Below, piece by piece: positions 24,423-60,328 of a DNA stretch of 64,000 bases; position 1 is the first letter of the stretch, and each line of letters begins with the position of its first letter. The notes beneath the pieces were generated by a model. That model was given only the letters and a program-made list of their open reading frames with translations. It was not told where the DNA came from and did no database searches. This DNA is from an uncultured virus (IMG/VR IMGVR_UViG_3300037296_000405) (Duplodnaviria; Heunggongvirae; Uroviricota; Caudoviricetes), in the IMG/VR virus record IMGVR_UViG_3300037296_000405; one strand, given 5' to 3'. Both the position numbers and the translations under genes were made by a program.

Positions 24423-25355
24423 ATGTTAAAATTATTAATTATATTGTATTCAACCGTAGCTCTTTCCTCTACTGATTTTAATAGTGGAGAAGAAATAAGA
24501 GCAGTAGATTTTAATACAAAATCTACTTATTTAAATAATTATGTACAAGAAAGATCAAGCGAAAATTTATCACTATTAGTTTTTTCTCAAGGAGATATTA
24601 TATCTGCGGATGCTATTAATTTATATTTTAATCAGTTTGGAATATACGATACTATTAATTCTTTAAAAGATTTTTCTAACGGAGATAGAATCTTGTCTAT
24701 TGATATTGAAGGAAACTTCCAAGAAGCTAAACGTATAGTTGAAGAAAAATTCTTTTTTAAATCATGTTTAGAAGTTTTAAACAATGGATATTCAGTAGGT
24801 AACGGTTTGTATACTGTTGATGTAGACGGTTTTTCAGGTTCTAAAAGTCCAATAACAGTTAACTGCGATATGACTAATGGCGGATGGACCGTTATTATAC
24901 CTAATACAGGAAGTTCTAGTGAAATATTAACTTATATGAGTCAGTTCTCTAATACATCATCATTACAAAGTACATTTTATTATAATTCTTCATATGGTGT
25001 TGGTTGGGGAACTAATAATGATACTTGGGTAAATTATTCAATAAATAATATTTCCTATACAGAAATAGAAATGACTTACTCTGGTTTTTATGAGAATCCA
25101 GCAGGTGGGTTAGGACAAATGGTCTTGTCTAATGGAAGTACTCTTGTTAGTTTAGCTGATTCATGGACGGATTATAGATTCGGTCAAACATTATATGTTA
25201 GACCAAGTAATGTGTTGTATCAATCAAGAACTAATGTTATTAACAGGACAAGTTATTTTAGTGAGAATTCTTCTCTCATAGATATATCGATGAAAGGGTA
25301 TACAAGCTCTTATGGCTATACTAGAAGATACATTAAGTATTTAAGAATTAAATAG
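24423..25355 (+). CDS. secreted fibrinogen-related-domain protein
   Basis: signal peptide; KSCLEVL..GNGLYTVD..VNCDMTNGGWT. Confidence 0.75.
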   Translation: MLKLLIILYSTVALSSTDFNSGEEIRAVDFNTKSTYLNNYVQERSSENLSLLVFSQGDIISADAINLYFNQFGIYDTINSLKDFSNGDRILSIDIEGNFQEAKRIVEEKFFFKSCLEVLNNGYSVGNGLYTVDVDGFSGSKSPITVNCDMTNGGWTVIIPNTGSSSEILTYMSQFSNTSSLQSTFYYNSSYGVGWGTNNDTWVNYSINNISYTEIEMTYSGFYENPAGGLGQMVLSNGSTLVSLADSWTDYRFGQTLYVRPSNVLYQSRTNVINRTSYFSENSSLIDISMKGYTSSYGYTRRYIKYLRIK

Positions 25356-26685
25356 ACAACACAAAATAATGTTTGTTTTTTGTGAACTTTTTAAACTGAG
25401 GTTCTTTCCAGTAAATAATTTCTTTTTTAATATGATTAAAAACATTCTTCGCTAAATCTGAATTTTTAATTCCATTGTTTCCATATTTAGAAAATTGATT
25501 AATATACCAAGAGTTATTATCAAGCTTTAATTCCATGTTAACAAACATCTCACCATCTTTTGTTAGAGCAAGAATAAGAGTTTCTGGTGACCCAGCCACA
25601 TCAGAATAACCTCTAATACAGTTATTCATAATAGCAGACCATTTTATTAAGTCATAATTACTTTTTGGATACTCTATATTATAATCTTCAAATAAGCAAG
25701 CTTGTTTATTTTTTACTAATGCTGGAAAATTTTTAGGAACATCAATTTTTTGCAAAGGATATCTAAGCTTATGATTCTCTGAACTAAGTATTGAGTGTAA
25801 TGACTGGAAGCTATTAAAATTTAAACTTGATAAGTTTAAATCAACTTTGTCTTTTATATCTAAGTACAAAGAAACAGATTGGAGTAGAGAGTTGACGGCA
25901 TTGGGTTTATTTAAAAAGTTCATTAATTTTTTATCTTTTCCTTTAAAATACTTGTTGATGAACGATTTACACTGAAGTAATCTTTCTTTAGGTAGTCTAC
26001 TCAAAATAGAAAAATTATTAAATTTGTTTTCATCTGATAGTATTTTAATAATATTTTGGATATCTAAGCTATCACTAAAAATAAGACCAATAGTATAGAA
26101 TTCAGGAAAGACGATGCCCTCTCTAAAGAAGTTTTTAAGAATAACCTTTTCAAGTTTTTTAGTATGGGTTCCAAATACATCTTGTATTATGTTTTCTAAT
26201 GACATTTTATCTTTGAAATATTGATTTAATGGATCAGAAACTAGGCATTTAAAAAAAACATCGTTATCTATTACATTGCCAAAATGAACAAAGTGAAATC
26301 CCTTATCTGTAATAGGGTATCCACCTGAGTTTAATAGAGTTACTAGTTCTTTTTTTTGTTCATCCCAATTTCTATTAGTTGAAGTAACCCAAAAGTTATA
26401 TAAACCTTCGAATTGTTCTTTATTATTAATTAAATTTAAACTAACTGCATTGGGTAATTTTTCACCTTTCAAGCATAAAGAATTATCTATAAATGAGAAT
26501 TCTGGAAAGATAAAGAAATCTTGAGGATAAAGTATCTCAGTTAAGCTATCAAAGTTTTGACTAGAAATAGCATCAGAAGCTTTTTTATATCTAAACTCTT
26601 CTTCTTCTGGAATAGAATGAGTTTCTCCATTAGTTGTGTCAACAATCATTAATACTGAAGGTGTTTTTGTAAATATATATCTCAA
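25348..26685 (-). CDS. rIIB-like N-terminus fused to PcfJ-like domain
   Basis: LYNFW...ELVTLL...YPITDKG; C-terminal PKS..DLIKWSAIMNNCIRGY. Confidence 0.6.
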   Translation of the reverse strand: MRYIFTKTPSVLMIVDTTNGETHSIPEEEEFRYKKASDAISSQNFDSLTEILYPQDFFIFPEFSFIDNSLCLKGEKLPNAVSLNLINNKEQFEGLYNFWVTSTNRNWDEQKKELVTLLNSGGYPITDKGFHFVHFGNVIDNDVFFKCLVSDPLNQYFKDKMSLENIIQDVFGTHTKKLEKVILKNFFREGIVFPEFYTIGLIFSDSLDIQNIIKILSDENKFNNFSILSRLPKERLLQCKSFINKYFKGKDKKLMNFLNKPNAVNSLLQSVSLYLDIKDKVDLNLSSLNFNSFQSLHSILSSENHKLRYPLQKIDVPKNFPALVKNKQACLFEDYNIEYPKSNYDLIKWSAIMNNCIRGYSDVAGSPETLILALTKDGEMFVNMELKLDNNSWYINQFSKYGNNGIKNSDLAKNVFNHIKKEIIYWKEPQFKKFTKNKHYFVLSI

Positions 26686-26802
26686 AATAATTCCCCTTAT
26701 TTAACAACTTGATTAATTATATCACTAATTAAGTAACAATTCAAGAAAAAGATCTTGATTTAATTTTTTTAGGATGTATAATAATAGAAAACAGGGGGAA
26801 TA

Positions 26803-29070
26803 ATGATTCTAGATAAGAAAGAAAATTTGGTATTAAATACAAATGATAATAGTACAGAGATTATAAAGTCAGAGATTCATGACTCATCTATCATTATTGA
26901 TTATCTTAGAAATAAAATGTACAATAATAAAATTCAAACTCCTGTTCAAGAATATATTTCTAATGCCATTGATGCAATGGTTAGTATCGATAGCGACAAG
27001 AGTATCAGAATCACTTTACCAACAGGAATAAAGCAAGAATTAAAAATAAGAGATTATGGACCGGGCTTATCAGAAGATGCTATGAAAAAGGTTTTTACTC
27101 AGTACGCAAATTCAAGTAAGACATCAAGTGATAAACAAGTAGGTGGATATGGATTAGGTTCAAAAAGTGCTTGGGCATATACTCCAGTTTTTTTTGTATC
27201 ATCTTTCTTTGAAGGGAAAAAATATATTTACATAGCAAGAATAGGTGATAACCAAGAAGGTGAATTTGTTAAGAGTGCTATTGTAGATACTCAAGAAGAA
27301 AACGGACTAGAAATTTCAATACCAGTAACAAAAACAGAAGACGTTCGCAAATTTGTTCAAGCGGTTTATAGAGCTTCGATGTTAAGAAAAAATAAGCCAG
27401 AAATAATCGGCGATTCATTAGGTTACGAAAAGTGTTATTTTGATATTGAAGATGTTTCTTTGGAAAAAGATAATTATAAAGTAATACCAAAGACTGCTGT
27501 ATTGGAATCAACTCTAGCTTTGGGTTGGTCTAGAGATAAAGTTGTTATTGTTGTATCTGGAATACCATATGCTTTACCAGACCTTGGGGGTAGAGAAAAT
27601 AAAGTTAACAAAATATCTAGTATGTTGAATAGATCTTATTTAGTTTTAGACTTTAAAACAGGTGAAGTTGATATTCAGCCAGATAGAGAAAGAATTTCTG
27701 AAAATGATAAGACCCTCGATAATATAAAAAATAAAATAGATGAAGTATATTTCTCTATAGTAATGGAAAGAATTAAGAAATTAAAAGGACAGAAAAACTT
27801 AAAAGATTATTTAGATTCATGGAATAGAGATGGAGAAGCGTTCTCAGAGAGAACTATTTATACAGGAAGTAAAAGTAAAAGTGTTTTAGTTCCTAATGTT
27901 TTTAAAGAAGGTAATTATAATTTTCTTTACAGTAATAGGCAATATAGATCAAACTCAAGAGAAATGATTGTAACGAATTTATATTCGATTAAAGGTAGAA
28001 TGTATAACAGAGCAACAGGTTTTTTTGAAAGAAATATTGTTGAATATGGAGTTGATAAAGGGAAATTGATATCTTCAAGTTGGATTGAGCGATACACTGG
28101 AAAAAAAATTGTAAGAATTGCTATAAGTGTACAAATAATACACGGAAAGGTTAATCTTTCGAATGATAACTTATATGCAGAAATTGACGAGGAGATTACT
28201 GAATATCAACTCAAAAGAAAATTAAAAAAATACTTATCTCAAAGAGAAGTGACTAAACCATTAGTTATTTTGCCAAAAGGTATATGCGATAGTTTAGGTA
28301 TTGAAACTCCTGCTTTAATTTCTATAAAAGATATGACATTGCCAGAAAAGCAGGCAAGGGAAGTTAGAACAGGCATATCTTGTTTTTATTATGATTGTTG
28401 TTATGATGGAGTTAAGAGAAGACCAGACAGTTTTGAATTAGAGGATGTTGATTTAGAAGATAAGTATGTTTATATGACTTTAGAAAGTAATAAGAACCCA
28501 AAATGGTTTAATGATATTACGAGTAGAGATCAAAACGAGCTAATTGCATACTTAAATAACAAAGGTTATAAGTTCAGAGCTATGGGTAAGAAATCAATTG
28601 ATTTAATAAAAGACCAACCAAATTTTATATCATTTGAAAATTATGTTCAAGAAAATTCTTCATTATTAGGTGAAGTATCTTTACTTTTTAATAGAGAGAC
28701 TCCAACAATGAAATTTTTAAAAAAATCTGGGAAAGAAGATTTTGAGTGGGAAGATTTAAATAATTTTATAAAAGTTTTTAAATTGCTTAAAAAATCATCA
28801 TTAACAATACCAAGATGTCTAATTATAGAAACAGCGGAAAATAAAGAAAAGTTAAATAATATTGAAGATTATATAATTAAAGTAAAAGAATTGCTTGAAA
28901 AAGAATTAAAATTAGTTTCTCACTCTTTTAATGATTATTTGACCAATGACGTTTTTAATGAATTAGTCGATTATTCTAATTTTAAAATTTCTAAATTAGT
29001 TGAATGTAATAGTTTAGTTGAATCTGATAAAGACTTTGAATCTATAGTTAGAGAGGTTTTAGATGCTTAA
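26803..29070 (+). CDS. rIIA-like GHKL (HATPase_c) ATPase, paralog 1
   Basis: EYISNAIDA, IRDYGPGLS, GGYGLGSKS, PDRE. Confidence 0.85.
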   Translation: MILDKKENLVLNTNDNSTEIIKSEIHDSSIIIDYLRNKMYNNKIQTPVQEYISNAIDAMVSIDSDKSIRITLPTGIKQELKIRDYGPGLSEDAMKKVFTQYANSSKTSSDKQVGGYGLGSKSAWAYTPVFFVSSFFEGKKYIYIARIGDNQEGEFVKSAIVDTQEENGLEISIPVTKTEDVRKFVQAVYRASMLRKNKPEIIGDSLGYEKCYFDIEDVSLEKDNYKVIPKTAVLESTLALGWSRDKVVIVVSGIPYALPDLGGRENKVNKISSMLNRSYLVLDFKTGEVDIQPDRERISENDKTLDNIKNKIDEVYFSIVMERIKKLKGQKNLKDYLDSWNRDGEAFSERTIYTGSKSKSVLVPNVFKEGNYNFLYSNRQYRSNSREMIVTNLYSIKGRMYNRATGFFERNIVEYGVDKGKLISSSWIERYTGKKIVRIAISVQIIHGKVNLSNDNLYAEIDEEITEYQLKRKLKKYLSQREVTKPLVILPKGICDSLGIETPALISIKDMTLPEKQAREVRTGISCFYYDCCYDGVKRRPDSFELEDVDLEDKYVYMTLESNKNPKWFNDITSRDQNELIAYLNNKGYKFRAMGKKSIDLIKDQPNFISFENYVQENSSLLGEVSLLFNRETPTMKFLKKSGKEDFEWEDLNNFIKVFKLLKKSSLTIPRCLIIETAENKEKLNNIEDYIIKVKELLEKELKLVSHSFNDYLTNDVFNELVDYSNFKISKLVECNSLVESDKDFESIVREVLDA

Positions 29071-29404
29071 ATCGATAAGAATTAAAGTCGATTGGATTAA
29101 GTCTAATAACGGTTATACCGTGAAGATTCCTAACGGATTAGTCATAGGATACACTTGTTTAAAAGTTAAAGAATCATACAATGAAAAAGAAAATACTCCT
29201 TTCAAATATGGTGTTAATTTTTGGATTATCAACGAAGGACATGATTATTCAAAAAAAGGAGATGTTTTGTTTACCCGTTCCCCTGAAGTTGCAAACTCGC
29301 CAGTTCTATTTATGTGTGGAGAAGATGTCGATATATACTGTGAAAATAACCATAAAATAGTTAATGGTCAAAATTTTTGCGGGGAATGTGGAGTAAAAGT
29401 TTAA
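29063..29404 (+). CDS. hypothetical protein with C-terminal zinc ribbon
   Basis: CENNH...FCGECG. Confidence 0.65.
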   Translation: MLKSIRIKVDWIKSNNGYTVKIPNGLVIGYTCLKVKESYNEKENTPFKYGVNFWIINEGHDYSKKGDVLFTRSPEVANSPVLFMCGEDVDIYCENNHKIVNGQNFCGECGVKV

Positions 29405-29476
29405 AATATTTATATTTAATTGAAAATCTATAAAATAGTTATTGATCAATTTGTTTTTTTACCTTATACTAATTTT

Positions 29477-30220
29477 ATGAATAAACTACAAACCCTTATA
29501 AAAGAAAAAAACGTGACGGAGAAACAAATTAGTTTCTTTTCTAATGATAGTTATCTACTAGATTTTTTGCTAACGTCTGACGATAAAGAAATAAAGATGT
29601 TAAAAGAACTAGAGCCTATATATCCTGTATTAAGACTTTTTTCTTTAAAAAAACTAAAGAAATTGATGAATAATTCAAGACATATATCTCGTGAATTTGT
29701 ATTTATAATTTCACCAAATATTAATGATTCTTTTATAAAATGGTTTAGGAAGTTAAAAAATAAAAAAAGATTTAATTCTATTGATGAAATAGTGGATTAT
29801 CTATTTCAGATAACTAGATATGAAGAATCAAGTTTAGAACCAAGTAATAATTATTATCCTTTAATTAAAAAACTAGATAATAAATTAATAAAGGGTATAC
29901 ATTTTTCAATACCAAAAACAAATATTGAATTGATTGAAATAGGAAAAAGATATAATTCTTGCATAGGAAGCTATTCTGGAAGAATACTTTCAGGACAAGA
30001 GTTAAAGGTTATATCATTTAAAGAGGGTAAGCCATTTTATAATATAGGATTTTGTCCGAAGAAAAAAAATATAGTTCAGATTAAAGGGCAGTCAAACTTA
30101 CTTCCAACTAAAGAAGAAAGAGATTTTATTCTTGAGGTTATGGCGACTATAGGGATATACGATAACAAAAAAGTGTCAATTAGAGAAGAAATAACATCTT
30201 ACAATGTATTAGCTCAGTAA
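29477..30220 (+). CDS. PcfJ-like protein
   Basis: PKTNIELIEIGKRYNSCIGSY, QIKGQSN; leaderless after TTGATC-17-TATACT. Confidence 0.7.
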   Translation: MNKLQTLIKEKNVTEKQISFFSNDSYLLDFLLTSDDKEIKMLKELEPIYPVLRLFSLKKLKKLMNNSRHISREFVFIISPNINDSFIKWFRKLKNKKRFNSIDEIVDYLFQITRYEESSLEPSNNYYPLIKKLDNKLIKGIHFSIPKTNIELIEIGKRYNSCIGSYSGRILSGQELKVISFKEGKPFYNIGFCPKKKNIVQIKGQSNLLPTKEERDFILEVMATIGIYDNKKVSIREEITSYNVLAQ

Positions 30221-30297
30221 GTTACTAATATCAGGTTAAATAAAAGATCTTTACATTTAGTTAATTGTATACTATAATAATATTAAGGGAGTTTTTA

Positions 30298-35795: not shown

Positions 35796-35806
35796 AATAT
35801 TATCCT

Positions 35807-36493: not shown

Positions 36494-36660
36494 ATATCCT
36501 TTTATAATTAAATTAAACTTTAATTATTATATCACTTTTAATATAGAATATCAATAAGAATGAATAATAAAGTACACAAATATCTGTTTTTATTAATATT
36601 AATTTAAGTATTTTTACTTTAATATTTAAATCTTTATTATTCTACATTTATATTATATAA

Positions 36661-36681: not shown

Positions 36682-36700
36682 TAAATAAAAAGGATATTTT

Positions 36701-38440: not shown

Positions 38441-40318
38441 ATGTTGAATTCTAAATTACTAAAATTATTAAACGAAAAAGCTATTGTTTGGGGAGATAAT
38501 AATCCCGCAAAAGCAATACTTAATCAGTTAAATAATGTATATCCTATGAATCCAATTTTAAGTGAACTTTTAAAAGGTAAAGAGTTAGAATTGAAAGATT
38601 CTGACTTAGATAAAGATGAGCAAGGTTTCTCTTTAGTTGATTATGCTTCTGTTATCGGAAATACAAAATTTGTAGAAAAGTATATTAAAGATGAATATTT
38701 GCCAGTGATAGGTGAGTATAATTTAGATTTAAGTAAACCTTTATTTAAAAATTTATCTTTTGATAAAAAAATAATAGTAAAAGGACAGAACTTTTTTCTT
38801 CATAGTAAATATGATTTTTTAGAATGTAAAAACTTTAATGAAGCTTTGAAAAAAATATTTCCAAATGCAGGTAAAAAGACGTTTAAAACAATTTCAAATT
38901 TCATAGAAAATGAAAATGGCAATATTGATTTTTCAGCATTTCATTTTGCACACTATTGTTCGGTTTATGTATCAGACGCAAACCATTTTAATGAAATTAT
39001 AGAAAATTCAATTAATTTAGATTCAGTAGAGTCTCTTCATCCATTACATTTTGTTCTTGAGAGAATGAATGAAAAAAGATTTATTAAGCTTGTTATAGAT
39101 GCAACAAGAGTAAATAAATTTGAATTAAGCTCAATGGTTATAGATATTATGAGAATGTATAAAGATATTCTAAAAGTATGCGAAGAAGAATATGAAATTG
39201 ACTTTAAATCAATTAACACAGTTAAGGAATTACATGATTCAGTGATGAAAGACCATGAATTGATTTCAAGGCATGGAGAAAACTTAATGTTGTTTTTAGA
39301 AAGGAAATTTCCATACCTAGAAGCGTTTAGTGAAAATGAATTTAGAGGTTGTCAAATAGTAATACCAAAAGATAAAGCTACTCTAGTCGAGTGGGGTCAA
39401 CAATTAGGAAATTGTATTGGTAGTTACGGTCAAGATGCGAGAGATGGTCAGACTATTATTTTTGCATTGTATGAGAAAGACAAAGTTAAGTACAATATTG
39501 AGATTTCTCCTTCTGATGGAAGAATAAAACAATTTGTTTCACATTCAAACAATATTGTTGATGAAAACATGAGAAATGAATTACAAGAATTAATTGCTAG
39601 ATATTGCGAAGGAAGAGTTGTTTCAAATGAAGATGGAGAAATTATAAATTTAAATGTAGATAGAAGATTTCTAGTTAGAGTCTTAAAGACTGATAGTCCA
39701 GTAAATGAAGAAAAAGTATTTTTAAATAAATTATTTCAATTAGAATTTTCAAGTAAAAAAACTTTTGATAATTTTATTGATGTTAAAAGAATAGGTTTTG
39801 GAGACAACATACCTAAAGGAATAATGTCTTTGATATTAGAAGATAAAACATCTAAAGGGGCTTTATGTAATAAAATAGCTTCTCTAGAAAGTTCAGCTTA
39901 CACTGGATTGTTAAAGCAGTTTAAAGGAACAGATTTTATAAATATGAGAGTGAAAGATTACAGGGAAGTTGTTGTAGAAATTAAAAATAATAAAAAGAAA
40001 GGTGTAAGGAATTTTTTTATTGGAGTTGATAAACTTTTGAAAGTTACAGGTAAAACTCCAAGTGCTATGCAAAGTCAAGATTATACAGAATTTAAAAAAC
40101 TTATTGATAAAGAATTAGATGATAAAACCAATATATTTTTAGTTATATCAGATGTTAAAAAAAATAAAAGATTAGTTTATAAAGATGATAAAATAATTGA
40201 ACCTTTAGTTAATCAAATATTTTTTACGCATAAAGATAAATCTATTGATACGAATTTTAAAGTAGATGTTATTAAAAATCTATCAGGTGAATCTAATTGT
40301 GTTTATTCTGTAAAATAA
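38441..40318 (+). CDS. PcfJ-like multidomain protein
   Basis: ELHD, PKD..LVEWGQQLGNCIGSY, NIEI, QF...N. Confidence 0.75.
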   Translation: MLNSKLLKLLNEKAIVWGDNNPAKAILNQLNNVYPMNPILSELLKGKELELKDSDLDKDEQGFSLVDYASVIGNTKFVEKYIKDEYLPVIGEYNLDLSKPLFKNLSFDKKIIVKGQNFFLHSKYDFLECKNFNEALKKIFPNAGKKTFKTISNFIENENGNIDFSAFHFAHYCSVYVSDANHFNEIIENSINLDSVESLHPLHFVLERMNEKRFIKLVIDATRVNKFELSSMVIDIMRMYKDILKVCEEEYEIDFKSINTVKELHDSVMKDHELISRHGENLMLFLERKFPYLEAFSENEFRGCQIVIPKDKATLVEWGQQLGNCIGSYGQDARDGQTIIFALYEKDKVKYNIEISPSDGRIKQFVSHSNNIVDENMRNELQELIARYCEGRVVSNEDGEIINLNVDRRFLVRVLKTDSPVNEEKVFLNKLFQLEFSSKKTFDNFIDVKRIGFGDNIPKGIMSLILEDKTSKGALCNKIASLESSAYTGLLKQFKGTDFINMRVKDYREVVVEIKNNKKKGVRNFFIGVDKLLKVTGKTPSAMQSQDYTEFKKLIDKELDDKTNIFLVISDVKKNKRLVYKDDKIIEPLVNQIFFTHKDKSIDTNFKVDVIKNLSGESNCVYSVK

Positions 40319-45584: not shown

Positions 45585-47663
45585 ATGAAATTTAAAAATA
45601 GAGAGTCTAAAGAAATCACAAACATTAAAAGTAGTAAGGTGATTCAAGCTAAAATTGGGAATCCTGCAAAAATGCTTAGAATGTTCACTAAAGACTTATA
45701 TAAGCATCCTTTACAAACGGCTATTCAAGAGTACATAAACAATGCTAAAGACGCTCATATCATGGCTAAAAAGGACTGTAGTACCATTGAAATAACGGCT
45801 CCAACGATAGCTAATCAATGTGTTGTTATAAAAGACTTTGGACCGGGCTTATCCCCCGATGACATCGTCAATATCTTTGCGAATATAACAACATCAAATA
45901 AAGATGATAGTGATTTATTTAATGGTGGTTTTGGTATCGGTTCTAAATCTTGGTTTGCCGTTAATAATTCTTTTATGGTTGTTTCTCGATATAATAAAAC
46001 AAAAACTTATTACACTGTAAATTTTAATGATAAAAAAGGGATAACAATATCTATTGACCATGAAGAAAAAACCAATGAGAAAAACGGTGTTGAAGTTATT
46101 CTTCCACTTTCTAATAAAAATCAAATAAAAAATTCTCACAAAGCAATTGCTAGAGCTATAAATTTTTGGAGTGTAAGACCAAAAGTTTTAAATTTAGAAG
46201 TTAAATTAATAGAATTTAAAGAAAGAAATGAAGAGTATTCTATAATTTCTGTAGATAGTAAAGAAAGCGAGTTAATGGTTACTCTAGGAGAGACAATGTA
46301 CTCAATCAAAGAGTTACCTTGTTATAATAAATTAATTGAAAATGAGTATTGTTCTGGATTAAATGTTGTAATACATTTTAAAGTAGGTGAAATAGAAACT
46401 GAAAATTCTCAAGAAGTCGGTCCAGATAGAGAATCTTTTTCTCTTTCATGTAATGGAGATATTTATAATAGAGCAATTTCCTCGTATAAAAAAATAGTGA
46501 GTAACATTAAGAAAGAATTAAAAACTTTAGATAATGCTAAAGATATTCAAAAAATGTTATCAACTAAGTTTATTTTGAATAGTGGAATAATCTCATCAGG
46601 ATACAATCACAAGTTGAAGTGTGGATTAGTTGTCACTTTTAATAGTGGGCAACCTAGTTTGAAAGATTATACTGCTGATTATCAAAAATTAGATGGAAGT
46701 GTATGTCAATTAACTTATCATTTAGAATATGTTGGTTCTATTACGGATATTGTTGTAGAAGATAAAGAGTTAAATTCGAGAGACATGAGACTAGCTATAG
46801 ACACTTTTGCTATAAACAATTCAAGGCAACCTTTGAGTTACTTGAGAGGTTATCATTACTCAAAGAAAAATCATTATAATAATGGAGTTATTGTAGTAGA
46901 AAAAGATAGATTATCTAAAAAAGAATTAAAAGAGCTTAATAATTACTTTAATGTTAGGTATACATCTAAAATTGATTTTATTGCTCCAACTAAAATAAAA
47001 AAAGATATTGCCTTGGGTAGTATAAATTGTATTATGCGTACGGATAATAATAAGACTAATTCAAAGTTAAATAAAAAAGAAGTTAAAGATTTTATTATAC
47101 TTGCTCAACAAGATTATCATGATACTAAAAAAGTTACATGGGTTGATTTAAGGAAGCTTTCTAACGAAAAGAACAAACACTATATAATCGTATCTCAAAA
47201 AAATTATGATTTATTAAGTTCTCAAGAATTTGATTGTAGAAAGACGGTAAATATATATAAAGATGTTACAGCTTTCAAAAAAATGAAAAAAGAACAAGAT
47301 ATCGCTATTGTTAAAGAAAAAGGTTTGGATTTAATATATTCGGTAGAGACTTCTCTAAAATATATTCGAAATAATCATGAAGAGATATATTATCAAGACG
47401 ATGCTATGTCTTGGATTAAAGAACTGGTTAAGTTAATACCAAATAATAAAAATATAAAAAAGATATCTTCTATAGATTTTTCTAAATACGATGATATGTG
47501 TACAAAAAGAATGACCTTGAAGCAAATGAAGATAAAACCAAATAGAGACTTTCTAAATTTTATTAAAAAAATAAAGAAAGAAAGACCCTTTGCTTTTCAG
47601 AATATAGAAAAAAACTGTAAAAAGTATAAAAAAGAGCTTCTTTTAATGCTAAAAGGACTTTAA
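45585..47663 (+). CDS. rIIA-like GHKL ATPase, paralog 3
   Basis: same N-terminal motifs as paralog 2. Confidence 0.85.
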   Translation: MKFKNRESKEITNIKSSKVIQAKIGNPAKMLRMFTKDLYKHPLQTAIQEYINNAKDAHIMAKKDCSTIEITAPTIANQCVVIKDFGPGLSPDDIVNIFANITTSNKDDSDLFNGGFGIGSKSWFAVNNSFMVVSRYNKTKTYYTVNFNDKKGITISIDHEEKTNEKNGVEVILPLSNKNQIKNSHKAIARAINFWSVRPKVLNLEVKLIEFKERNEEYSIISVDSKESELMVTLGETMYSIKELPCYNKLIENEYCSGLNVVIHFKVGEIETENSQEVGPDRESFSLSCNGDIYNRAISSYKKIVSNIKKELKTLDNAKDIQKMLSTKFILNSGIISSGYNHKLKCGLVVTFNSGQPSLKDYTADYQKLDGSVCQLTYHLEYVGSITDIVVEDKELNSRDMRLAIDTFAINNSRQPLSYLRGYHYSKKNHYNNGVIVVEKDRLSKKELKELNNYFNVRYTSKIDFIAPTKIKKDIALGSINCIMRTDNNKTNSKLNKKEVKDFIILAQQDYHDTKKVTWVDLRKLSNEKNKHYIIVSQKNYDLLSSQEFDCRKTVNIYKDVTAFKKMKKEQDIAIVKEKGLDLIYSVETSLKYIRNNHEEIYYQDDAMSWIKELVKLIPNNKNIKKISSIDFSKYDDMCTKRMTLKQMKIKPNRDFLNFIKKIKKERPFAFQNIEKNCKKYKKELLLMLKGL

Positions 47664-47749: not shown

Positions 47750-48961
47750 ATGTCAAAAATGTTTAAATATAAGCAAGTTATAAGAGAAGACGGTGTAGAA
47801 GTAATTACTGTTATTCATAAAGGTATTCATACTTTTAACCCAACAAGCTTAGTCTTTCCATTTATTAAAGAATGTATTGAAGCTGATAAAGAATTATACC
47901 CTATTGACGATATAATTTCTCATAAAGTAATAACACCATGTAAAATGGAATTAAAAAACCATAGATTTACAATCTTAGGTGAGGAAATCGAAGATAGTCT
48001 CATCATGGAACATTCAGACAAATTAGAACTACTACAACATTTATTTTTAAATTTAAGAAATCATACTTATGATAAGAAAAAAACACTAGATATCTTTAAG
48101 TTAAATGCTTCATCTATTAAACCAATGACAGATGATGGTTTTGTATTTTTAGTAGAATCTAAGGGAGATTTTTCTAAAACACCAATTTTTTATGCCAATA
48201 ATTCTCATCAAACAATTGAAGAGTACAAAAAACTTAAATTAGGAAAGAAATTAAATCAAGTTCTTTTAAGTAAAATGCTAAATGTGAACGAAATAAATCC
48301 TTTTCCTTTCAATTTAATGAAAAACTTTTCTAAAACTTGGGATGAAAATCAATTAAGAGATTTACTTGCCGTTGATTTTGGTTACACTCAAGAAAGAAAC
48401 TATGAAAGACTTTATTCTTTTTATGAATTTTATTTCAATAGCCCGAAAAGATTTCTAAATATTGTTAATAAGCAAGAAATTCCTGCTAATTTATTGGATA
48501 AATTTGCAATTGTAAAAAAATATTTAGACCCAAGCATTAAGGTTAGTAATATTACAAAATTACATGAGTTTTTAAATAAGACATACGAAAACCATAAAAC
48601 AAAATTAGATTGGGAAAGATTAATTCAAAAACACCCAATTGTAGAAAAAATGAATGGAATTAAAATTTCTGGATTTACTTTGAAGTGTCCTAAAGATGCA
48701 GGGGAAATTACACTTTGGGGGAACTTAATGAGTAATTGTTTTGGTGGCAGAGTATCATCTTACCAACGTGGCGACGTTTGCTTATTCGGCTTGTTTGATA
48801 AAAGTGATAAGTTATCTTACGTTTTTGAAATTAGATATAATAAAGTTAAAACTTCTGGAAGGTACGGAGATTTTGAAGGAAAAAGAAGGGAAGCGCCACC
48901 TATAAAATTAAAAGAGAGTCTTACAAAAAGATTTTTAAAAGAATGTAATTTTATTTTATAG
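47750..48961 (+). CDS. rIIB-like N-terminus fused to PcfJ-like domain
   Basis: LFLNL...PMTDDGFVFL; PKDAGEITLWGNLMSNCFGG. Confidence 0.55.
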   Translation: MSKMFKYKQVIREDGVEVITVIHKGIHTFNPTSLVFPFIKECIEADKELYPIDDIISHKVITPCKMELKNHRFTILGEEIEDSLIMEHSDKLELLQHLFLNLRNHTYDKKKTLDIFKLNASSIKPMTDDGFVFLVESKGDFSKTPIFYANNSHQTIEEYKKLKLGKKLNQVLLSKMLNVNEINPFPFNLMKNFSKTWDENQLRDLLAVDFGYTQERNYERLYSFYEFYFNSPKRFLNIVNKQEIPANLLDKFAIVKKYLDPSIKVSNITKLHEFLNKTYENHKTKLDWERLIQKHPIVEKMNGIKISGFTLKCPKDAGEITLWGNLMSNCFGGRVSSYQRGDVCLFGLFDKSDKLSYVFEIRYNKVKTSGRYGDFEGKRREAPPIKLKESLTKRFLKECNFIL

Positions 48962-51128: not shown

Positions 51129-51501
51129 TTAAAGATTAAAAAAGTGTTTAACTTGAAAAAATGAATAAATAACTAGAGTTAGTGTTGAAAACACTTCTCC
51201 AGATTTGATAACATTCATATTTTGATCTAATTCACCTTTTACACACTTTGTAACTATAAAATTTGACAAGAACAATCTTATTACAACTAGAACTGTAATC
51301 CATATATGAGGGGGAGCATAGTCCAAGAATAACAGCCTCTATTATCCCAAAGTACAGAATGAATTTAATTTGACCTGATTTAGCAGAACTTAGTTCTTTT
51401 AGATTTTTAAAGTTGTTAGATACGAGAGATTTAACTGTTTCAAATAAACCAAATCCAGTATAAATCAAGAGTATAATTAATCCAATGTAATTCATTATCA
51501 T
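51129..51501 (-). pseudogene. membrane protein split by one extra base in a C5 run
   Basis: two overlapping ORFs join into one hydrophobic protein if one C at 51310-51314 is removed. Confidence 0.5.
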
Positions 51502-51509
51502 TTTTTTTC

Positions 51510-52991
51510 TTAGTCTATGTATATCGTATGGATACACTGTTTTTCATATATATCTTTTAAATTTATTTTATTTGTATGTTGAGTTACATCTTTAATATAT
51601 TGATGTTTACAAAGAAATGAAAAAACTTCATCGAATAATTTAAAAGAAGGTGATTCATTTTTATAACCTTTAAGTTGTTCAAAAACCCCGTTTTTAATAA
51701 CACCTAGAAATTTTTTACCATTATTGACAGTAATCAGATAATTAAATCTCTCTTTATAGTAATCTAAAGTTTCAAAGTTACCTGCACAATTACTTAATTC
51801 TAAACCTATATCAAATAAATGTTTCGTGTCTTCAATTTTTTGGATTTTAAAACTTTTGGAATTATTATTAAACCTTGATGAATTATATAAGGTGTTTAGA
51901 TTTAAAAGTTTTTCTTTAGGCGAATTTTTTGAAAGCTTTTTAGATAAGTTATTTAAGTAGTAGTATAATTTTTTTTCTCTCTTTACAGATAAAATTTCAT
52001 TGTTTTTGTAAAATTCATTCAAAACAATTATTGCATCAGGAATTAGATGAAAACAGATATTTGTTTTTTTAAGAATGTCTAGAGGTTCTTCTTTAAATAA
52101 AGAACAAAAATTAGTAATATTATTTCTGAGGTCAACTGATTTTAAACAGAAAGCTTCATTTATATTTAGGCTTATTTTTTTTAGGTATTCTATTTGAGTT
52201 TTTAATTGATTAATAGATTTTATTTTATGAGAATCAGACATGTCGAATATAGTTCTTAACATCTCAAAAAGATAAAAATTTAAAAATATGTATTTACCTT
52301 CTGAATCGTTAATTCCCATAAATAAATTACTTTGAATGAATTTTTCTAAATCTTTTTTAAATACAATATTTTTGTTATTAGTTAAAACATTATATAACTC
52401 TGTAAATGAATGTAGCTGTTCGTACTCTTCACTTATAAAATCTGGATTATCTTTTAGTGTAGGAATTAAATTTAATAGTGAGTTCATTCTAGAATAATTA
52501 CTTTTAGCATTTCCATTAGAAAAAACCCAATTATTCATATTGTTTTTAACATAATTAAATTGATTAATAAAAACATCTCTTTTATACTCTAATTGTTCTA
52601 ATATAAATAATTCTTTGTCTTTTTCTAAATGATATTCTTGTGAATTAATGATTGTATTATAAAAATTAGTTAAATTGCTTCCTATACGTGATTTTAATAA
52701 ATACACAATCTGATACAAAGGAAATTTATCTACTTTAACCAAAGGTGCAGATTCTGTTACAATATCTATTATTTTTTTTGTTGTTGAGGTTTCTGTTAAT
52801 TTAATATAATTCTTTAGTGAGTTAATATCTGAATAATGTAAGCTACAATGAAATGACAAAATCCCTTTAATAGATATAAATACATTCATTAATTTATCAT
52901 TTTTTATTTCTTTACTTTTTATAATATAAATACTAATAATACCATTGTTCGATCGGATAACTCTAATTTCTTTTTTAAAAATATTAAACAT
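51510..52991 (-). CDS. PcfJ-like protein
   Basis: HLFDIGLELSNCAG, QLKGYKN. Confidence 0.65.
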   Translation of the reverse strand: MFNIFKKEIRVIRSNNGIISIYIIKSKEIKNDKLMNVFISIKGILSFHCSLHYSDINSLKNYIKLTETSTTKKIIDIVTESAPLVKVDKFPLYQIVYLLKSRIGSNLTNFYNTIINSQEYHLEKDKELFILEQLEYKRDVFINQFNYVKNNMNNWVFSNGNAKSNYSRMNSLLNLIPTLKDNPDFISEEYEQLHSFTELYNVLTNNKNIVFKKDLEKFIQSNLFMGINDSEGKYIFLNFYLFEMLRTIFDMSDSHKIKSINQLKTQIEYLKKISLNINEAFCLKSVDLRNNITNFCSLFKEEPLDILKKTNICFHLIPDAIIVLNEFYKNNEILSVKREKKLYYYLNNLSKKLSKNSPKEKLLNLNTLYNSSRFNNNSKSFKIQKIEDTKHLFDIGLELSNCAGNFETLDYYKERFNYLITVNNGKKFLGVIKNGVFEQLKGYKNESPSFKLFDEVFSFLCKHQYIKDVTQHTNKINLKDIYEKQCIHTIYID

Positions 52992-54466: not shown

Positions 54467-55574
54467 TTTTATTTTTCCTTAATTTATTAATTATAATATT
54501 TTTTACTTTAATCACTTCTTCTTTAATTCTTTTACTCTCTTTAAGGTAAGTAAAGTCATGATTTTTGATTGACTCGGAGCAAGATATTAATAGTTCTAAG
54601 TTAGTCGGTTTAGTGTGTTTTATTAAAAAATAAGTTTCTTTAATAATTTTTAAGCCTGAGTTCTCTGTAGACTCTTTATCTAGATTCAGAACAGATATAA
54701 ATCGGATAATTTCTTCATTCGTGATTTCATTATAGAGATTATCTATATTGTTTTTTAAAAAGCTAAAGAGTTTCTTTTTTGTTTTTCCAAAATTAAAGAG
54801 TTTTACTATAGAATCATCTCCATAATAAAACATTAAGAATTCAAACGATTCTAGGCTTCCTTTGAATTGTTTCATAGTTTCATGGAATGGTTTGTAATTA
54901 GCTTTTAATGAGGGAAATACTATATCAAAAGAATGAAGCTCTTTCATTGCATAGAAAAAAGTTTCGTAATTAGTAGATTCTTTGTGTAGTTTGTACAATT
55001 CTGTTTTAACTCTATTATTGTTTAGTGTAGAAAGTTCACCACTTAGCGCAATGTCTTTACAAGCATCCTTGAGTTCTTGAGATAATGAAAAGTTTAATTT
55101 AGATGAGAATCTTGCAGCCCTAAGAACCCTCAAAGGGTCTTCTTTAAAAGCCTTGGATGTGGGTCTTAAAATTTTATCTTGAATATCTTTTATTCCGTTA
55201 TAAGGATCAATAAATTCATTAGTAGTAGAATCATAAGCAATAGAGTTGACAGTTAAGTCTCTTCTCATTAAGTCATCTTTTAAAGAAATAGAATCATCAT
55301 ATTCAAAAGAGAATCCATGGTATCCTTCTCCAACTTTTTTTTCTTTTCTAGCTAAAGCATATTCTTCATTAGTTTTAGAGTGTATATAAACTGGAAAGTG
55401 TTTTCCTACATTTGATACATAAGAATTTCCATCGTTATCCACTTTAGTAAACATTGCAATCTCTAAATCTTTAAGTTTTGAAGGGGTAGCTCCAACAATA
55501 ACATAATCTCTATCTTCTGGAGTTTTATTTCTTAGAATGTCTCGTACTGCGCCACCGACTAGATATATTTTCAT
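54459..55574 (-). CDS. cca: tRNA nucleotidyltransferase (CCA-adding-like)
   Basis: YLVGGAVRD, DRD, EYALARKE, DLMRRDLTVN, EDPLRVLRAARF. Confidence 0.92.
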   Translation of the reverse strand: MKIYLVGGAVRDILRNKTPEDRDYVIVGATPSKLKDLEIAMFTKVDNDGNSYVSNVGKHFPVYIHSKTNEEYALARKEKKVGEGYHGFSFEYDDSISLKDDLMRRDLTVNSIAYDSTTNEFIDPYNGIKDIQDKILRPTSKAFKEDPLRVLRAARFSSKLNFSLSQELKDACKDIALSGELSTLNNNRVKTELYKLHKESTNYETFFYAMKELHSFDIVFPSLKANYKPFHETMKQFKGSLESFEFLMFYYGDDSIVKLFNFGKTKKKLFSFLKNNIDNLYNEITNEEIIRFISVLNLDKESTENSGLKIIKETYFLIKHTKPTNLELLISCSESIKNHDFTYLKESKRIKEEVIKVKNIIINKLRKNKNE

Positions 55575-57046: not shown

Positions 57047-57048
57047 TT

Positions 57049-59133
57049 TTAGTCATCACTCAGCATTAGTATTAATTTATGTATCTCATCTTCTAGACTA
57101 GAATCATTTTTATATATAGCTAACATTAAAAGAGGATTATTCTCTATAAGTGATTTTATTCTTTCTAGACCTTCAGTTTCTTGCGGAAACATTTTTTCAA
57201 ATGAAGATTTTCTCCATAGACACAAATACTTCCTCTTTAAGTCTATAAGATTTCTATAAGGTAAGATTTTATTTGAAGGAATATTGGATATTATCTTGTC
57301 GTCAGAAAAGTATTTCTGAAAAATATTTAAAAATACATCATGCATCTTGGATGAATCTTGTTTATAAATATATTCTACAAGATTAAACCATTTTAATTTA
57401 TTTTTGGTAGATGTTCTCTCAGCTTCAGTATTTAGTCGTGTCAACTTCTCTTTATTTTCTTTTATCATAAGAGTTTTTTGTTTTCTATCAAACTTTTTTC
57501 TCTCGAGGTTAACATTTGCTACAGTTAATTCTTTGAATCCTCGTTTTAGCAGTATTTTCATTGTGTCAGTAGAAACTACATAATATTGTAATTGAAGTAC
57601 ATTAATACTGTATCTGAAGCTACCATAAGATGAAGACCTAGCTCTCCAATTATTAGATTCAATTATAGGAATTTTTTTGTCTAGCATGTCTACTTTAAAT
57701 TTTTTATTTGCTGAATATTTTTTTATCCTATTTGAAGATGTTGGTATTATTCCTCTTTCTAGTATATTAACAGAAGGATTGTTTTCTTTAAGTTTTTCAG
57801 ATAAACTTTTAGGAATTTTTATGTTATATTCACTGTAGTTTTTAATAGTGAAAAATTTTTTGTACGCAACTTCTTTTACAGAATCTATTCCATCTGAATA
57901 CTCAATAAAGCAAACTCTATTGTATTTTTTTTCTTTGTCTAAAATTTGTTGACTGATTGTTCTCTTATGTTTTTTTAAGTCATGGATATTAGGCATTTTA
58001 ATTAAAAGAGTTCTAGGGTCAATTTCTATAAATCCCGCTTTTGATTTCCTGCCGTGAGGAAGCCATGAATCTTTTAATTTTCTGTCTAGGGGAAGTAAAT
58101 TTCTTCTCATAAATAACATAGGTAAGCCATCTATCGTCGTAGAATAGCTTTCATGAGGATATTCATCTAGATTAACAATTTTTGATATTCGTTCTATATT
58201 TTTTTCTTCTTTAATAATTTTTTTCAAGATTGAAGGCATCTTCATAATAATTTTGTTAAATTTAGAAATAACATGTTCTTCCATTGTTAGGGCAAAATTC
58301 TCTCGGTCAGGTCCAACTTCTTGTGAATTTTTTAATTTTACTTCACCAACTTCAAATTTGATTTGGATTGAATAACTAGCACATCTATATCTTATGTGCC
58401 TAAGCTTTTCAAAGTCGTTAATTGAATATTGTGTCTCTCCTAAAGTTACAGAAATAGAAGGTTTTCCAGTGTATGCAATAATTTTAAAATCTTTACAATC
58501 ATAAACGCATGGTAGTTCACCTAATTCAAAGTTAATTAGTTTAGGTCTAACTTTCCAAAACTTTATTGCTCTTTTAATTGATTTTACAGAGTCCTCAATT
58601 TGATTAGAATTTGCTAAAGGTAATATTACTGTTACACTATTTTTTTCACTAGTTTCTTCTTCATCTTGTACATCGATATAGATATTGTCAGTGAAAGAAA
58701 TTTCATAAGATGTTTTAGTTCCGTTAAATGTTGAGACTACATAGAAGCTCGGGTTAATAGCAAACCAAGATTTAGAGCCAATACCAAAACCTCCATTGAA
58801 TTTATCCGAAGTATCTTTATTTGAAGCGGTAATTCTTGCAAATACATTTTCAATATCAGCGGGAGATAAGCCCAATCCAAAATCTTTAATAATAACATTT
58901 TGATTAGCCATGGTAGGTGCTGTTATTTCTATAGCACTACAGTCCTTTTTAGCCATGATATGAGCGTCTTTAGCATTGTTTATGTACTCTTGGATAGATG
59001 TTTGAAGAGGATGCTTATATAGGTCTTTAGTGAACATTCTTAACATTTTAACGGGATTATCAATTGAAGCTATAATTCTCTTTTTTTCTTTAAAATTACT
59101 CTTAGATTCAATAGAATTTTTATTTAGTTTCAT
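57049..59133 (-). CDS. rIIA-like GHKL ATPase, paralog 4
   Basis: same motifs; AAGGA SD before MKLNK. Confidence 0.85.
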   Translation of the reverse strand: MKLNKNSIESKSNFKEKKRIIASIDNPVKMLRMFTKDLYKHPLQTSIQEYINNAKDAHIMAKKDCSAIEITAPTMANQNVIIKDFGLGLSPADIENVFARITASNKDTSDKFNGGFGIGSKSWFAINPSFYVVSTFNGTKTSYEISFTDNIYIDVQDEEETSEKNSVTVILPLANSNQIEDSVKSIKRAIKFWKVRPKLINFELGELPCVYDCKDFKIIAYTGKPSISVTLGETQYSINDFEKLRHIRYRCASYSIQIKFEVGEVKLKNSQEVGPDRENFALTMEEHVISKFNKIIMKMPSILKKIIKEEKNIERISKIVNLDEYPHESYSTTIDGLPMLFMRRNLLPLDRKLKDSWLPHGRKSKAGFIEIDPRTLLIKMPNIHDLKKHKRTISQQILDKEKKYNRVCFIEYSDGIDSVKEVAYKKFFTIKNYSEYNIKIPKSLSEKLKENNPSVNILERGIIPTSSNRIKKYSANKKFKVDMLDKKIPIIESNNWRARSSSYGSFRYSINVLQLQYYVVSTDTMKILLKRGFKELTVANVNLERKKFDRKQKTLMIKENKEKLTRLNTEAERTSTKNKLKWFNLVEYIYKQDSSKMHDVFLNIFQKYFSDDKIISNIPSNKILPYRNLIDLKRKYLCLWRKSSFEKMFPQETEGLERIKSLIENNPLLMLAIYKNDSSLEDEIHKLILMLSDD

Positions 59134-59302
59134 ATTATCCTTATTTTTAGTATAATAATATAGTATCAAACTTGGTGGTATATATCAACTATTTTTAATT
59201 GAATACTTGTTTTTTAGTATGAAATGTGGGTTTAAGCTGTATTTAAATATTGACAAAAATAAATAGTTTTGATAAAATAATATTGATAAAAATAAGGATA
59301 TA

Positions 59303-60328
59303 ATGAACGATGCTATTTGTGAATTTAATTTAAAATATAAAGATAATCCTCAAATAGACCATGTTGTTGATTTCCTGTCTAAATCACCAAAGTATAAAAA
59401 TAAGAAAACCATTAACTTCTCGTACGAAGAAGCTTTATTTAAAGCTGATGAATGGACTAAAGAACTAAATAAAAAAAACAAAGATTTGAAATCATCCGGA
59501 GAAGTCGAAAATATTTTAACTTTTAACAAAGGTTATATCCTTGTTAGATTAATAGACCAAGAATCTAAAAATTGGGAAGGTCTTCATATGGGACATTGTG
59601 TGGCTTCATACAAAGACCATGAAGGTATTTATTCTTTAAGAGATAAAAGCAATCTTCCAAAATGTACCATTGAAATTACAAGAGGTTATGTAAATCAAAT
59701 AAAAGGAAAATCAAATGGGAAAATAGCTCCTGAATATATAGAATATGTATTGGAATCAATTAAATATTTTAATTACAAAATTAATGATCGTGATATAGAG
59801 AATGTTGGATACATCCCCCTATCAAAAGATATAGAGCATTCATTCACTAATTTAAAAATAATTACATTAAATAATAAACAATATTTTTATACAGGAAACC
59901 AATTAAAGTTATCAGTGAAACCAATTTTCAATAATGATATTTTTGTATTGATTATTAAAATAGGTCAATCTTTTGAATATATTGAAAAAGCACTTCTTGA
60001 CTCAAATGTAGACCCATCCTGTTTTGAAAACTATGCAATTAGAATATCATCGGGTTTAGGTAACGTAGAATTAGTTAAAATGTTAATCAGTAACCCAAGA
60101 GTAGACCCATCGGATTCAAAAAATCAAGCTATCCGAGGAGCTTCATATTATGGTCATACAGAAATTGTAAAGATTTTACTAAAAGACCCAAGAGTAGACC
60201 CATCGGATTTACGTAATCAAGCTATGCACTGTGCTTCAGCAAAGGGTCATGCAGAAATTGTAAAGATTTTACTAAAAGACCCAAGAGTAGATTCTAGAAC
60301 ATTGCTACCACTGTTTAAAACCATCTAA
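59303..60328 (+). CDS. PcfJ-like domain plus ankyrin repeats
   Basis: WEGLHMGHCVASY, YSLRD, QIKGKSN; GHxEIVKILLKDPRVDPS repeats. Confidence 0.8.
   Translation: MNDAICEFNLKYKDNPQIDHVVDFLSKSPKYKNKKTINFSYEEALFKADEWTKELNKKNKDLKSSGEVENILTFNKGYILVRLIDQESKNWEGLHMGHCVASYKDHEGIYSLRDKSNLPKCTIEITRGYVNQIKGKSNGKIAPEYIEYVLESIKYFNYKINDRDIENVGYIPLSKDIEHSFTNLKIITLNNKQYFYTGNQLKLSVKPIFNNDIFVLIIKIGQSFEYIEKALLDSNVDPSCFENYAIRISSGLGNVELVKMLISNPRVDPSDSKNQAIRGASYYGHTEIVKILLKDPRVDPSDLRNQAMHCASAKGHAEIVKILLKDPRVDSRTLLPLFKTI
60094..60292 (+). repeat. 93-nt-period tandem repeat encoding ankyrin units
   Basis: CCCAAGAGTAGA at 60094, 60187, 60280. Confidence 0.85.

Follow-up and report, generated by a model that had tools for sequence, protein, structure and literature searches.

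Here, we describe the rII-type genes in a stretch of 64,000 nucleotides (nt), hereafter called the window, from an uncultured virus of the Caudoviricetes (IMG/VR record IMGVR_UViG_3300037296_000405). The window encodes four rIIA-like ATPases and, directly beside two of them, two hybrid proteins (hybrids A and B), in which an N-terminal domain (N-domain) is joined to a PcfJ-like C-terminal part. As judged by profile alignment and structure search, the N-domain is probably homologous to the central domain of rIIB (approximately residues 70-205 of the 303-amino-acid (aa) protein). Considering all the evidence, we lean slightly toward the explanation that the phage has rebuilt the rII system, with four copies of rIIA and with the rIIB central domain docking a PcfJ-type effector on rIIA. 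This explanation builds on the hybrids' domain content, their shared architecture, their remote similarity to rIIB, and their adjacency to rIIA, all of which are observed directly.

Both hybrids have a common layout, namely an N-domain of ~135-150 aa, a helical region, and a PcfJ-like core. In the AlphaFold (AF2) model of hybrid B, these parts appear as an alpha/beta N-domain (residues 1-150), a helical region (152-301), and a compact PcfJ core (309-399). The model was built from an 11-row alignment of the family (A5) and reached a predicted local distance difference test (pLDDT) score of 89.1 and a predicted template-modeling (pTM) score of 0.63. By BLAST, the C-terminal third alone aligns between the two hybrids (E 4e-5). 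A collection of 5.8 billion proteins yielded one close relative per hybrid (44% and 57% identity), and the profiles of the two resulting pairs align over 330 columns (hhalign E 1.5e-6, probability 90%), thus revealing one shared architecture. When 1.84 billion representatives were searched exhaustively with a profile, 54 proteins were returned at E <= 0.001. The majority (45) match the C-terminal PcfJ part only, and nine also cover the N-terminal part, namely both window hybrids and seven further metagenomic proteins.

An earlier note on this sequence had proposed a C-terminal PcfJ-like domain for both proteins, and BLAST among paralogs, hhalign, and Foldseek support it; the N-terminal motifs quoted there (NFW...PITDxG and PMTDDG) are likewise present in the two translations. 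The hybrid family aligns with the window's other PcfJ paralogs at an hhalign E of 8.6e-17. A Foldseek search of the full hybrid B model against BFVD gave 34 rows at E <= 0.001, 18 of which are named PcfJ-like (best E 4e-9) and none rIIB. The hybrids also contain the PcfJ core motif W/G-x-x-M/L-x-N/H-C, with an invariant cysteine, C330 in hybrid B, followed by three strands and a helix. On the PcfJ family of Pfam (PF14284), hybrids A and B score 19.6 and 19.9 bits, below the gathering cut-off of 25, and three other window proteins exceed it (30.7, 35.4, and 41.1 bits). As a side observation, the PcfJ core of hybrid B (residues 297-403) can be laid over the N-terminal half of many GNAT acetyltransferases, with Z 5.1-7.2 (below the tool's meaningful level) and a root-mean-square deviation of 3.2-4.3 over 86-107 residues; the match is consistent in 40-plus PDB entries. 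We regard this weak resemblance between a model and solved structures as a lead that names no fold.

The similarity to rIIB was assessed with the rIIB of Klebsiella phage PKO111 as a reference and an alignment built from 24 T4-type rIIB proteins (family markers PF26926 and phrog_609/3803/36818). For the hybrids, we used profiles of the hybrid A pair (A4), the 11-row family (A5), the N-domain (A6), and a two-row profile of hybrid B (A3). The register is constant in the profile-profile alignments of A4, A5, and A6, placing hybrid residues ~5-136 on rIIB ~70-207. A4 matches rIIB at E 2.5e-4 over 120 columns (hybrid A residues 5-129 on rIIB 78-207), A5 at E 3e-3, and A6 at E 1.1e-3; with the rIIB of actinophage Big4 added to the rIIB alignment, A4 and A6 reach E 1.3e-4 and 4.1e-4, respectively. 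Because pairwise hhalign E-values are poorly calibrated, shuffle and reversal controls were run. When the rIIB alignment was shuffled in 10-column blocks, none of the 106 shuffles attained the observed scores. A4 scored 38.3 against a null mean of 24.5 (standard deviation 2.9, maximum 33.5), and A5 scored 31.5 against 17.2 (standard deviation 2.1, maximum 25.4). With the rIIB alignment reversed, the E-values were 0.66 and 0.36. By BLASTP, the similarity of either hybrid to rIIB lacks significance (E about 1), even though the best segments of both lie on rIIB 163-201.

Structure search points to the same family. Folded alone with AF2, residues 1-152 of hybrid B gave a pLDDT of 88.8, and the top 20 BFVD rows retrieved with this model by Foldseek comprise 10 with rIIB-type names, 1 with another name, and 9 nameless (row E-values 1.5e-4 to 4e-2, ~140-155 aligned columns). 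The names counted as rIIB-type are 'RIIB', 'protector from prophage-induced early lysis', 'membrane integrity protector', 'lysis inhibitor', and 'RIIA-RIIB membrane-associated', the last three of which we take to be older rIIB names. No PcfJ-named row occurs among the best 50 rows listed. Among 48,161 solved PDB chains, no fold matches the N-domain (best Z 3.4), and it is therefore not a common or promiscuous fold. A search of the ESM Atlas with residues 1-152 gave no structural match at TM >= 0.5, and PcfJ clusters appeared at 0.76, below the meaningful level.

Several results weigh against descent from rIIB. For neither hybrid is a rIIB PHROG retrieved even at E <= 10, and neither is among the best 30 matches listed when six-frame open reading frames (ORFs) are searched with the HMMER rIIB profile. 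The precomputed Pfam column reads '-' for the hybrids and PF26926 for true rIIB proteins. When 72 window ORFs are compared with rIIB as single sequences in hhalign, hybrid A ranks 3rd (E 0.015) and hybrid B 6th and out of register; unrelated ORFs of the window also give E 1e-3 to 1e-2 in this uncalibrated, non-discriminating comparison. The two-row A3 profile aligned with rIIB out of register, and no match to A5 was obtained with the Big4 rIIB sequence on its own (E 0.51). The Foldseek TM-scores of the N-domain against the BFVD rows (0.26-0.46) remain below 0.5, the hhalign probabilities are 10-53%, and the models derive from shallow alignments of 2-11 rows.

These findings would suit a reading in which the rIIB resemblance reflects chance or the convergence of a small alpha/beta domain, so that the proteins are simply PcfJ paralogs with a lineage-specific N-domain: HMMER and PHROG are silent, the TM-scores and probabilities are low, and single-sequence scores of the same order arise from unrelated ORFs. 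We nevertheless think this quite improbable. Two independent methods arrive at the same family and the same region, the shuffles stay below the observed scores, and rIIB accounts for 10 of the 11 named rows in the top 20, with nothing comparable in the solved PDB chains. Moreover, the hybrids lie beside rIIA, as rIIB homology predicts.

What the hybrids share with rIIB is confined to its center. The earlier note had called their N-termini rIIB-like, and this holds for the central domain (by hhalign with its shuffle control and by structure search), but the helix-turn-helix (HTH) and the C-terminal domain of rIIB are absent, which also counts against the relationship. The alignments start at rIIB ~70-78 and at hybrid residue ~5-13, thus leaving no room for an HTH, and no HTH family of Pfam matches either hybrid at E <= 0.01 (the rIIB reference itself has weak HTH-family matches, all below the cut-offs, best E 7.5e-4). 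The C-terminal domain, with its invariant T-C-S-x-G-L-H-V-C, is missing as the alignments end around rIIB 207. Since they begin after the HTH and stop there, the hybrids keep the central domain only. They fall outside the rIIB family as its profiles define it and are best described as the outcome of domain recombination.

One could also dispense with fusion and see in the hybrids whole, very diverged rIIB orthologues, whose PcfJ-like core would correspond to the C-terminal domain of rIIB. The location of the genes is one expected of rIIB, and in both C-termini a cysteine motif ('GLHVC' in rIIB; 'NC' or 'HC' in PcfJ) is followed by beta strands. We consider this highly unlikely, as every hhalign alignment ends near rIIB residue 207 and, in the search with the full-length hybrid B model, two of the three best N-domain targets (now at ranks 43 and 50) align over 143-145 columns only. 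In addition, the hybrids hold a helical insert of ~150 residues that rIIB does not have, and in phage Big4, a true rIIB coexists with a PcfJ-like protein encoded by a gene of its own.

The other half of the system is readily recognized. In agreement with the earlier note, which counted four rIIA-like GHKL ATPases, all four proteins match phrog_612 ('RIIA lysis inhibitor'; E-values in Table 1) over their full length, across ~700 residues each, and HATPase_c_3 with 30.1-38.1 bits (cut-off 25). The N-box, DxGxG, and GGxGxGSK motifs of the N-terminal GHKL (Bergerat) ATPase domain are conserved, with E49, N53, D56, D84, G86, G88, G114, G115, G117, G119, S120, and K121 invariant in the four. In a tblastn search with rIIA against 2,668 phage records, annotated rIIA is among the matches listed. 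With pairwise identities of 27-57% (BLAST), the four genes are, on sequence grounds, old paralogs. Paralog 1 is the most divergent (27-31% identical to the other three); paralog 3 shows 42% identity with paralog 2 and 57% with paralog 4 over the N-terminal half. The frame of paralog 4 is open back to TTG 59169, and the phrog_612 match begins at residue 13 of this long ORF. Its start is most likely ATG 59133, which has a Shine-Dalgarno sequence and a -10 element. The TTG start of hybrid A is preceded by the Shine-Dalgarno sequence GGGGAA.

Table 1. rIIA-like, hybrid, and PcfJ-like genes of the window, with the ORF at the usual rIIB position
Feature	Coordinates	Strand	Details
Distant PcfJ-like paralog	18701..19723	+	340 aa; not adjacent to a rIIA gene
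Hybrid A (rIIB-central-domain::PcfJ)	25348..26685	-	445 aa from TTG (433 aa from ATG 26649); divergent from rIIA paralog 1
rIIA paralog 1	26803..29070	+	755 aa; phrog_612 E 1.1e-65, residues 1-739; HATPase_c 31.1 bits
113-aa ORF	29063..29404	+	overlaps the stop of rIIA paralog 1, the usual rIIB position; no Pfam or PHROG match
Short PcfJ-like paralog	29420..30220	+	266 aa; two genes downstream of rIIA paralog 1; no rIIB-like domain
PcfJ-like paralog	38441..40318	+	625 aa; different N- and C-terminal extensions; PF14284 41.1 bits
rIIA paralog 2	43377..45509	+	710 aa; phrog_612 E 1.9e-57; 14-mer promoter at 43316
rIIA paralog 3	45585..47663	+	692 aa; phrog_612 E 2.2e-55; terminator-like hairpin 5' of the gene
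Hybrid B (rIIB-central-domain::PcfJ)	47750..48961	+	403 aa; own promoter at 47701; after rIIA paralog 3
Possible seventh PcfJ-like paralog	51510..52991	-	493 aa; tentative
rIIA paralog 4	57049..59133	-	694 aa from ATG 59133; phrog_612 E 7.4e-45
PcfJ::ankyrin-repeat protein	59303..60328	+	divergent from rIIA paralog 4; PcfJ core N-terminal, then ankyrin repeats

Hybrid A lies 117 nt from rIIA paralog 1, in divergent orientation, and hybrid B follows rIIA paralog 3 after 86 nt. When the positions of the PcfJ genes were shuffled among the non-rIIA genes in the order of the 72 ORFs, the observation that a PcfJ-like gene touches three of the three rIIA blocks had a permutation P of 0.003, and contact of both hybrids with a rIIA block had a P of about 0.006. 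These adjacencies are not independent events because paralogs can arise by joint duplication. The multi-copy rIIA/rIIB-PcfJ module of the earlier note stands in so far as both hybrids adjoin rIIA; the PcfJ expansion, on the other hand, is wider than the pairing with rIIA.

The same holds in part for the promoters of rIIA paralog 2 and hybrid B, which had been said to share a sequence. They do have an exact 14-mer in common, TTGCAATTAGATCA, with exactly two copies in the window (at 43316 and 47701) and TATAAT 17-18 nt after each copy. Read from its sequence, however, the 14-mer is the -35 side of a sigma-70-like promoter, thus an ordinary -35 region and no module-specific signal, and the promoters of the other rIIA and PcfJ genes are similar to it without being identical. 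Each rIIA and hybrid gene has its own sigma-70-like promoter, and they therefore form no operon. Between rIIA paralogs 2 and 3, there is a perfect terminator-like hairpin with a T-run (45521-45553), so that this tandem pair is probably transcribed separately.

Physical docking of a hybrid on rIIA was modeled by co-folding one pair, rIIA paralog 3 (8-row alignment) with residues 1-152 of hybrid B (A6), in three runs. The score of 0.69, versus 0.19 for the best of three controls, passed a mark that was also attained by 116 of 157 solved complexes, as compared with 2 of 215 mismatched pairs; these counts hold only roughly here, because the alignments were our own. At least 95% of the contacts recur from run to run, and the partner has a pLDDT of at least 78. 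The predicted interface is formed, on the N-domain, by the first beta strands and the following helices (residues 4-34, 58, 68-73, and 82-89) and, on rIIA, by the GHKL domain (residues 6-14, 71-79, 127-146, 158-181, and 202-203). Searched by sequence, the PDB holds no solved structure of rIIA or rIIB (no rIIA beyond generic GHKL and no rIIB beyond the HTH) and no hybrid relative; therefore, a known complex that the program merely reproduced is an unlikely source of the score. The co-fold thus supports binding of the N-domain to the GHKL domain of rIIA as a prediction for this one pair. The separate promoters count against the docking explanation.

It may be that the N-domain descends from rIIB but binds a membrane, a nucleic acid, or a host target, and that its nearness to rIIA merely reflects an early accessory island rich in paralogs. 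Every gene having its own promoter, the hairpin between rIIA paralogs 2 and 3, and the many other accessory genes of the island would all be at home in such a setting, as would the PcfJ paralogs that are devoid of the domain and still found near rIIA (the ankyrin-repeat protein adjoining paralog 4 and the short paralog two genes off paralog 1); the co-fold, furthermore, is a model and no measurement. We judge this unlikely in view of the wide margin of the co-fold over its controls and the fact that only the hybrids, and both of them, have the rIIB-like domain and at the same time lie directly beside rIIA. Canonical systems also have rIIB directly after rIIA, as in PKO111 and Big4. Docking on rIIA hence remains our preferred explanation.

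Beyond the hybrids, the PcfJ family is larger than the earlier note recognized. It listed three members and overlooked the distant paralog, the short paralog, the 625-aa paralog, and possibly the 493-aa protein of Table 1; the window contains at least six PcfJ-like genes and, tentatively, a seventh. The short paralog is supported by PF14284 (30.7 bits), phrog_16315 (E 4.3e-13), and the A5 profile (E 4.2e-14). For the 625-aa paralog, which has no match to rIIB, the alignment to A5 (E 8.6e-17) covers residues 110-387, hence the helical region and the core only. The distant paralog has no Pfam match and is linked to the family by BLASTP to the 625-aa paralog (E 9.4e-6), by hhalign to the A5 core (E 1.4e-5), and by phrog_16315 (E 3.5e-4). 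The possible seventh member matches neither PcfJ in Pfam nor the A5 HMM and aligns with the A5 core in hhalign at E 6e-4 over 85 columns, including the 'NC' and 'Q..G' positions. The PcfJ-ankyrin gene divergent from rIIA paralog 4 was correctly described before: PF14284 matches residues 51-147 with 35.4 bits, and Ank_2 matches residues 252-329 with 61.4 bits. Among the window's PcfJ-like proteins, the rIIB-like domain occurs in the two hybrids only. As the same core is found with a rIIB-like domain, with other extensions, or with ankyrin repeats, it looks like a common module joined to different adaptor domains.

The earlier statement that no standalone rIIB is visible in this DNA was borne out by PHROG and HMMER searches, which cover 64 kb of a 248,888-bp contig. 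None of the 53 window ORFs scanned matches a rIIB PHROG, and the HMMER profile of the 24 T4-type rIIB proteins finds nothing among 371 six-frame open frames of at least 40 aa (best E 0.35). Two small ORFs were considered and set aside. The 113-aa ORF at the usual rIIB position is not rIIB-like (hhalign E 0.15 against rIIB and 0.24 against the hybrid family). At 51232-51537 (minus strand), hhalign places the end of a 101-aa ORF on 26 columns of the 'LHVCSKSY...VKV' stretch in the C-terminal part of rIIB (E 0.0011, 38% identity); this ORF is short, membrane-like, and overlaps a neighboring gene, and the match is probably due to chance.

If the preferred explanation is correct, the rIIB-type domain would be what attaches the hybrid to the GHKL domain of rIIA, and this docking would let the rIIA ATPase control a PcfJ-type effector or would bring that effector to where rIIA is located. 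Other PcfJ paralogs would use other adaptors (e.g., ankyrin repeats), and the rIIA/hybrid/PcfJ set would act as early accessory proteins in the conflict between phage and host. We infer that PcfJ is the effector and that the system as a whole may function in counter-defence. A more far-reaching version, which we put forward tentatively and with more doubt than belief, would make rIIA a hub ATPase and the rIIB central domain a portable docking module, with rIIB itself consisting of HTH, docking part, and effector. Here, the effector would have been swapped for a PcfJ-type, possibly essential-cysteine, weakly GNAT-like enzyme, and hubs (four) and effectors (six or seven, some of them directed by ankyrin repeats) would have multiplied against several abortive-infection systems of the host simultaneously.

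Few genes are as famous in genetics as those of rII, and yet, to our knowledge, no mechanism has been described for rIIA and rIIB. Since the hybrids keep only the middle domain of rIIB, adjoin rIIA, and are predicted to bind its ATPase domain, this middle domain is likely the rIIA-contact module, and it offers a short, testable construct. The phage PcfJ family, widespread and uncharacterized, is also tied to the rII system, for the first time as far as the literature searched goes. The available text of one study reports that rIIB triggers bacterial CARD-gasdermin defence (10.1101/2023.05.28.542683); replacing the other rIIB domains could therefore help a phage to escape this sensing, which is speculation on our part.

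The GC content is 27% throughout the window, and no tRNA genes were found in it. A protein database places the hybrid B protein on the aforementioned 248,888-bp contig, so the window represents about a quarter of the phage. Its gene types are those usually found in the accessory region of a very large (jumbo) phage: four rIIA genes, ClpS with a ClpA/B-type ATPase, NAD/ADP-ribose enzymes, RNA-repair-type enzymes, and nucleotide kinases. The NAD/ADP-ribose cluster (34935-37261) stands among the rIIA and PcfJ genes and encodes an ADP-ribosylglycohydrolase (184.8 bits), a NUDIX protein with a NrtR winged helix, and an isochorismatase-family (nicotinamidase-like) protein. At 40377-43249, flanked by a PcfJ-like gene and rIIA paralog 2, a phage ClpS adaptor (48.2 bits) immediately precedes an AAA+ ATPase of the two-ring ClpA/ClpB type (785 aa; phrog_4871 E 3.9e-197). 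Divergent from the 625-aa PcfJ-like gene lies a 340-aa protein with weak ankyrin repeats (37253-38275, minus strand; Ank_3 24.1 bits), the island's ankyrin protein besides the PcfJ-ankyrin fusion.

Further observations concern nucleotide and RNA metabolism. Of two paralogous proteins (48980-50005 and 62079-63176; 31% identical), one has HD and AAA_33 (polynucleotide-kinase-like) domains, and the other matches only AAA_33 and KTI12. With a nearby PolyA_pol/CCA-adding-type nucleotidyltransferase (54459-55574), they give the impression of a set for the repair of RNA or tRNA. A thymidylate kinase fused to a guanylate kinase (413 aa; 30265-31506) is followed two genes later by a stand-alone second guanylate-kinase-like protein (32288-32827). 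Upstream accessory genes encode a weakly dual-specificity/tyrosine-phosphatase-like protein (1491-2396), a subtilase (3260-4252), a Rv2179c-like 3'-5' exoribonuclease (7788-8423), and a DUF2779 protein (9100-10698).

Relatives of the arrangement were sought in other genomes. Scans of IMG/VR (A3 and A4) and of JGI metagenomes (A7 scan) found no relatives of the hybrids, and tblastn against cultured phages gave no match for hybrid B and a match to the PcfJ core only for hybrid A. Scans with the rIIA alignment found distant rIIA (30-37% identity) in three IMG/VR loci and on two short metagenome contigs. In the three loci, the neighbors of rIIA are an AAA ATPase with a DUF2201 protein, a DNA ligase, and small ORFs, with neither PcfJ nor rIIB beside it; on metagenome contig L008, a 319-aa ORF lies upstream of rIIA. 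Two cultured phages speak against a link between PcfJ and rIIA. Bacillus phage WH1 (vB_BceM_WH1) has a PcfJ-like gp140, whose neighbors are not rIIA, and has no rIIA at all, and in Microbacterium phage Big4, the PcfJ-like gene is ~7 kb from a canonical rIIA-rIIB pair. In the literature searched, no paper mentioned 'PcfJ' together with 'rIIA' or with 'rIIB', and none of the papers listed for PcfJ and phage was on PcfJ function. We know of no function for PcfJ, a further limit of the preferred explanation. The available text of a jumbo-phage survey makes no mention of PcfJ (PMC7824862).

How, then, do the window's genes compare with known systems? Phage PcfJ-like proteins (PF14284, phrog_16315, and phrog_3169; e.g., WH1 gp140, a protein of Bacillus phage Shbh1, and Big4 gene 240) share the helical region and PcfJ core with the hybrids (Foldseek E 4e-9 to 1e-4; hhalign E 3e-12 for Big4 gene 240) and differ from them in that a rIIB-like N-domain was not retrieved from them among the best 50 rows listed in the N-domain search.

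As far as their available texts go, T4 rIIA and rIIB are both required for growth on RexAB hosts (PMC13716836; 10.1101/2023.05.28.542683), and rIIA is a GHKL ATPase whose C-terminus varies; rIIB begins with an HTH (PMC7824862). With the T4-type pair, the window shares a full-length GHKL rIIA, a partner gene beside rIIA, and the rIIB central domain in that partner. It differs in its four rIIA copies, its separate promoters, and the divergent orientation of one pair, and its partner has no HTH and no 'GLHVC' domain but a helical region and a PcfJ core instead.

Big4 encodes rIIA-like (226) and rIIB-like (227) proteins, the latter matching T4-type rIIB at E 7.8e-29, as well as a PcfJ-like protein (240), with NAD-salvage genes between the pair and the PcfJ-like gene. 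As in the window, rIIA, a rIIB-type domain, NAD-related genes, and a PcfJ-like gene thus lie within about 12 kb of accessory genes. By analogy, this layout is compatible with, rather than a demonstration of, a functional link that became a fusion in the phage described here: in Big4, a canonical rIIB is separate from the PcfJ-like protein, whereas in the window, both parts are found in one polypeptide.

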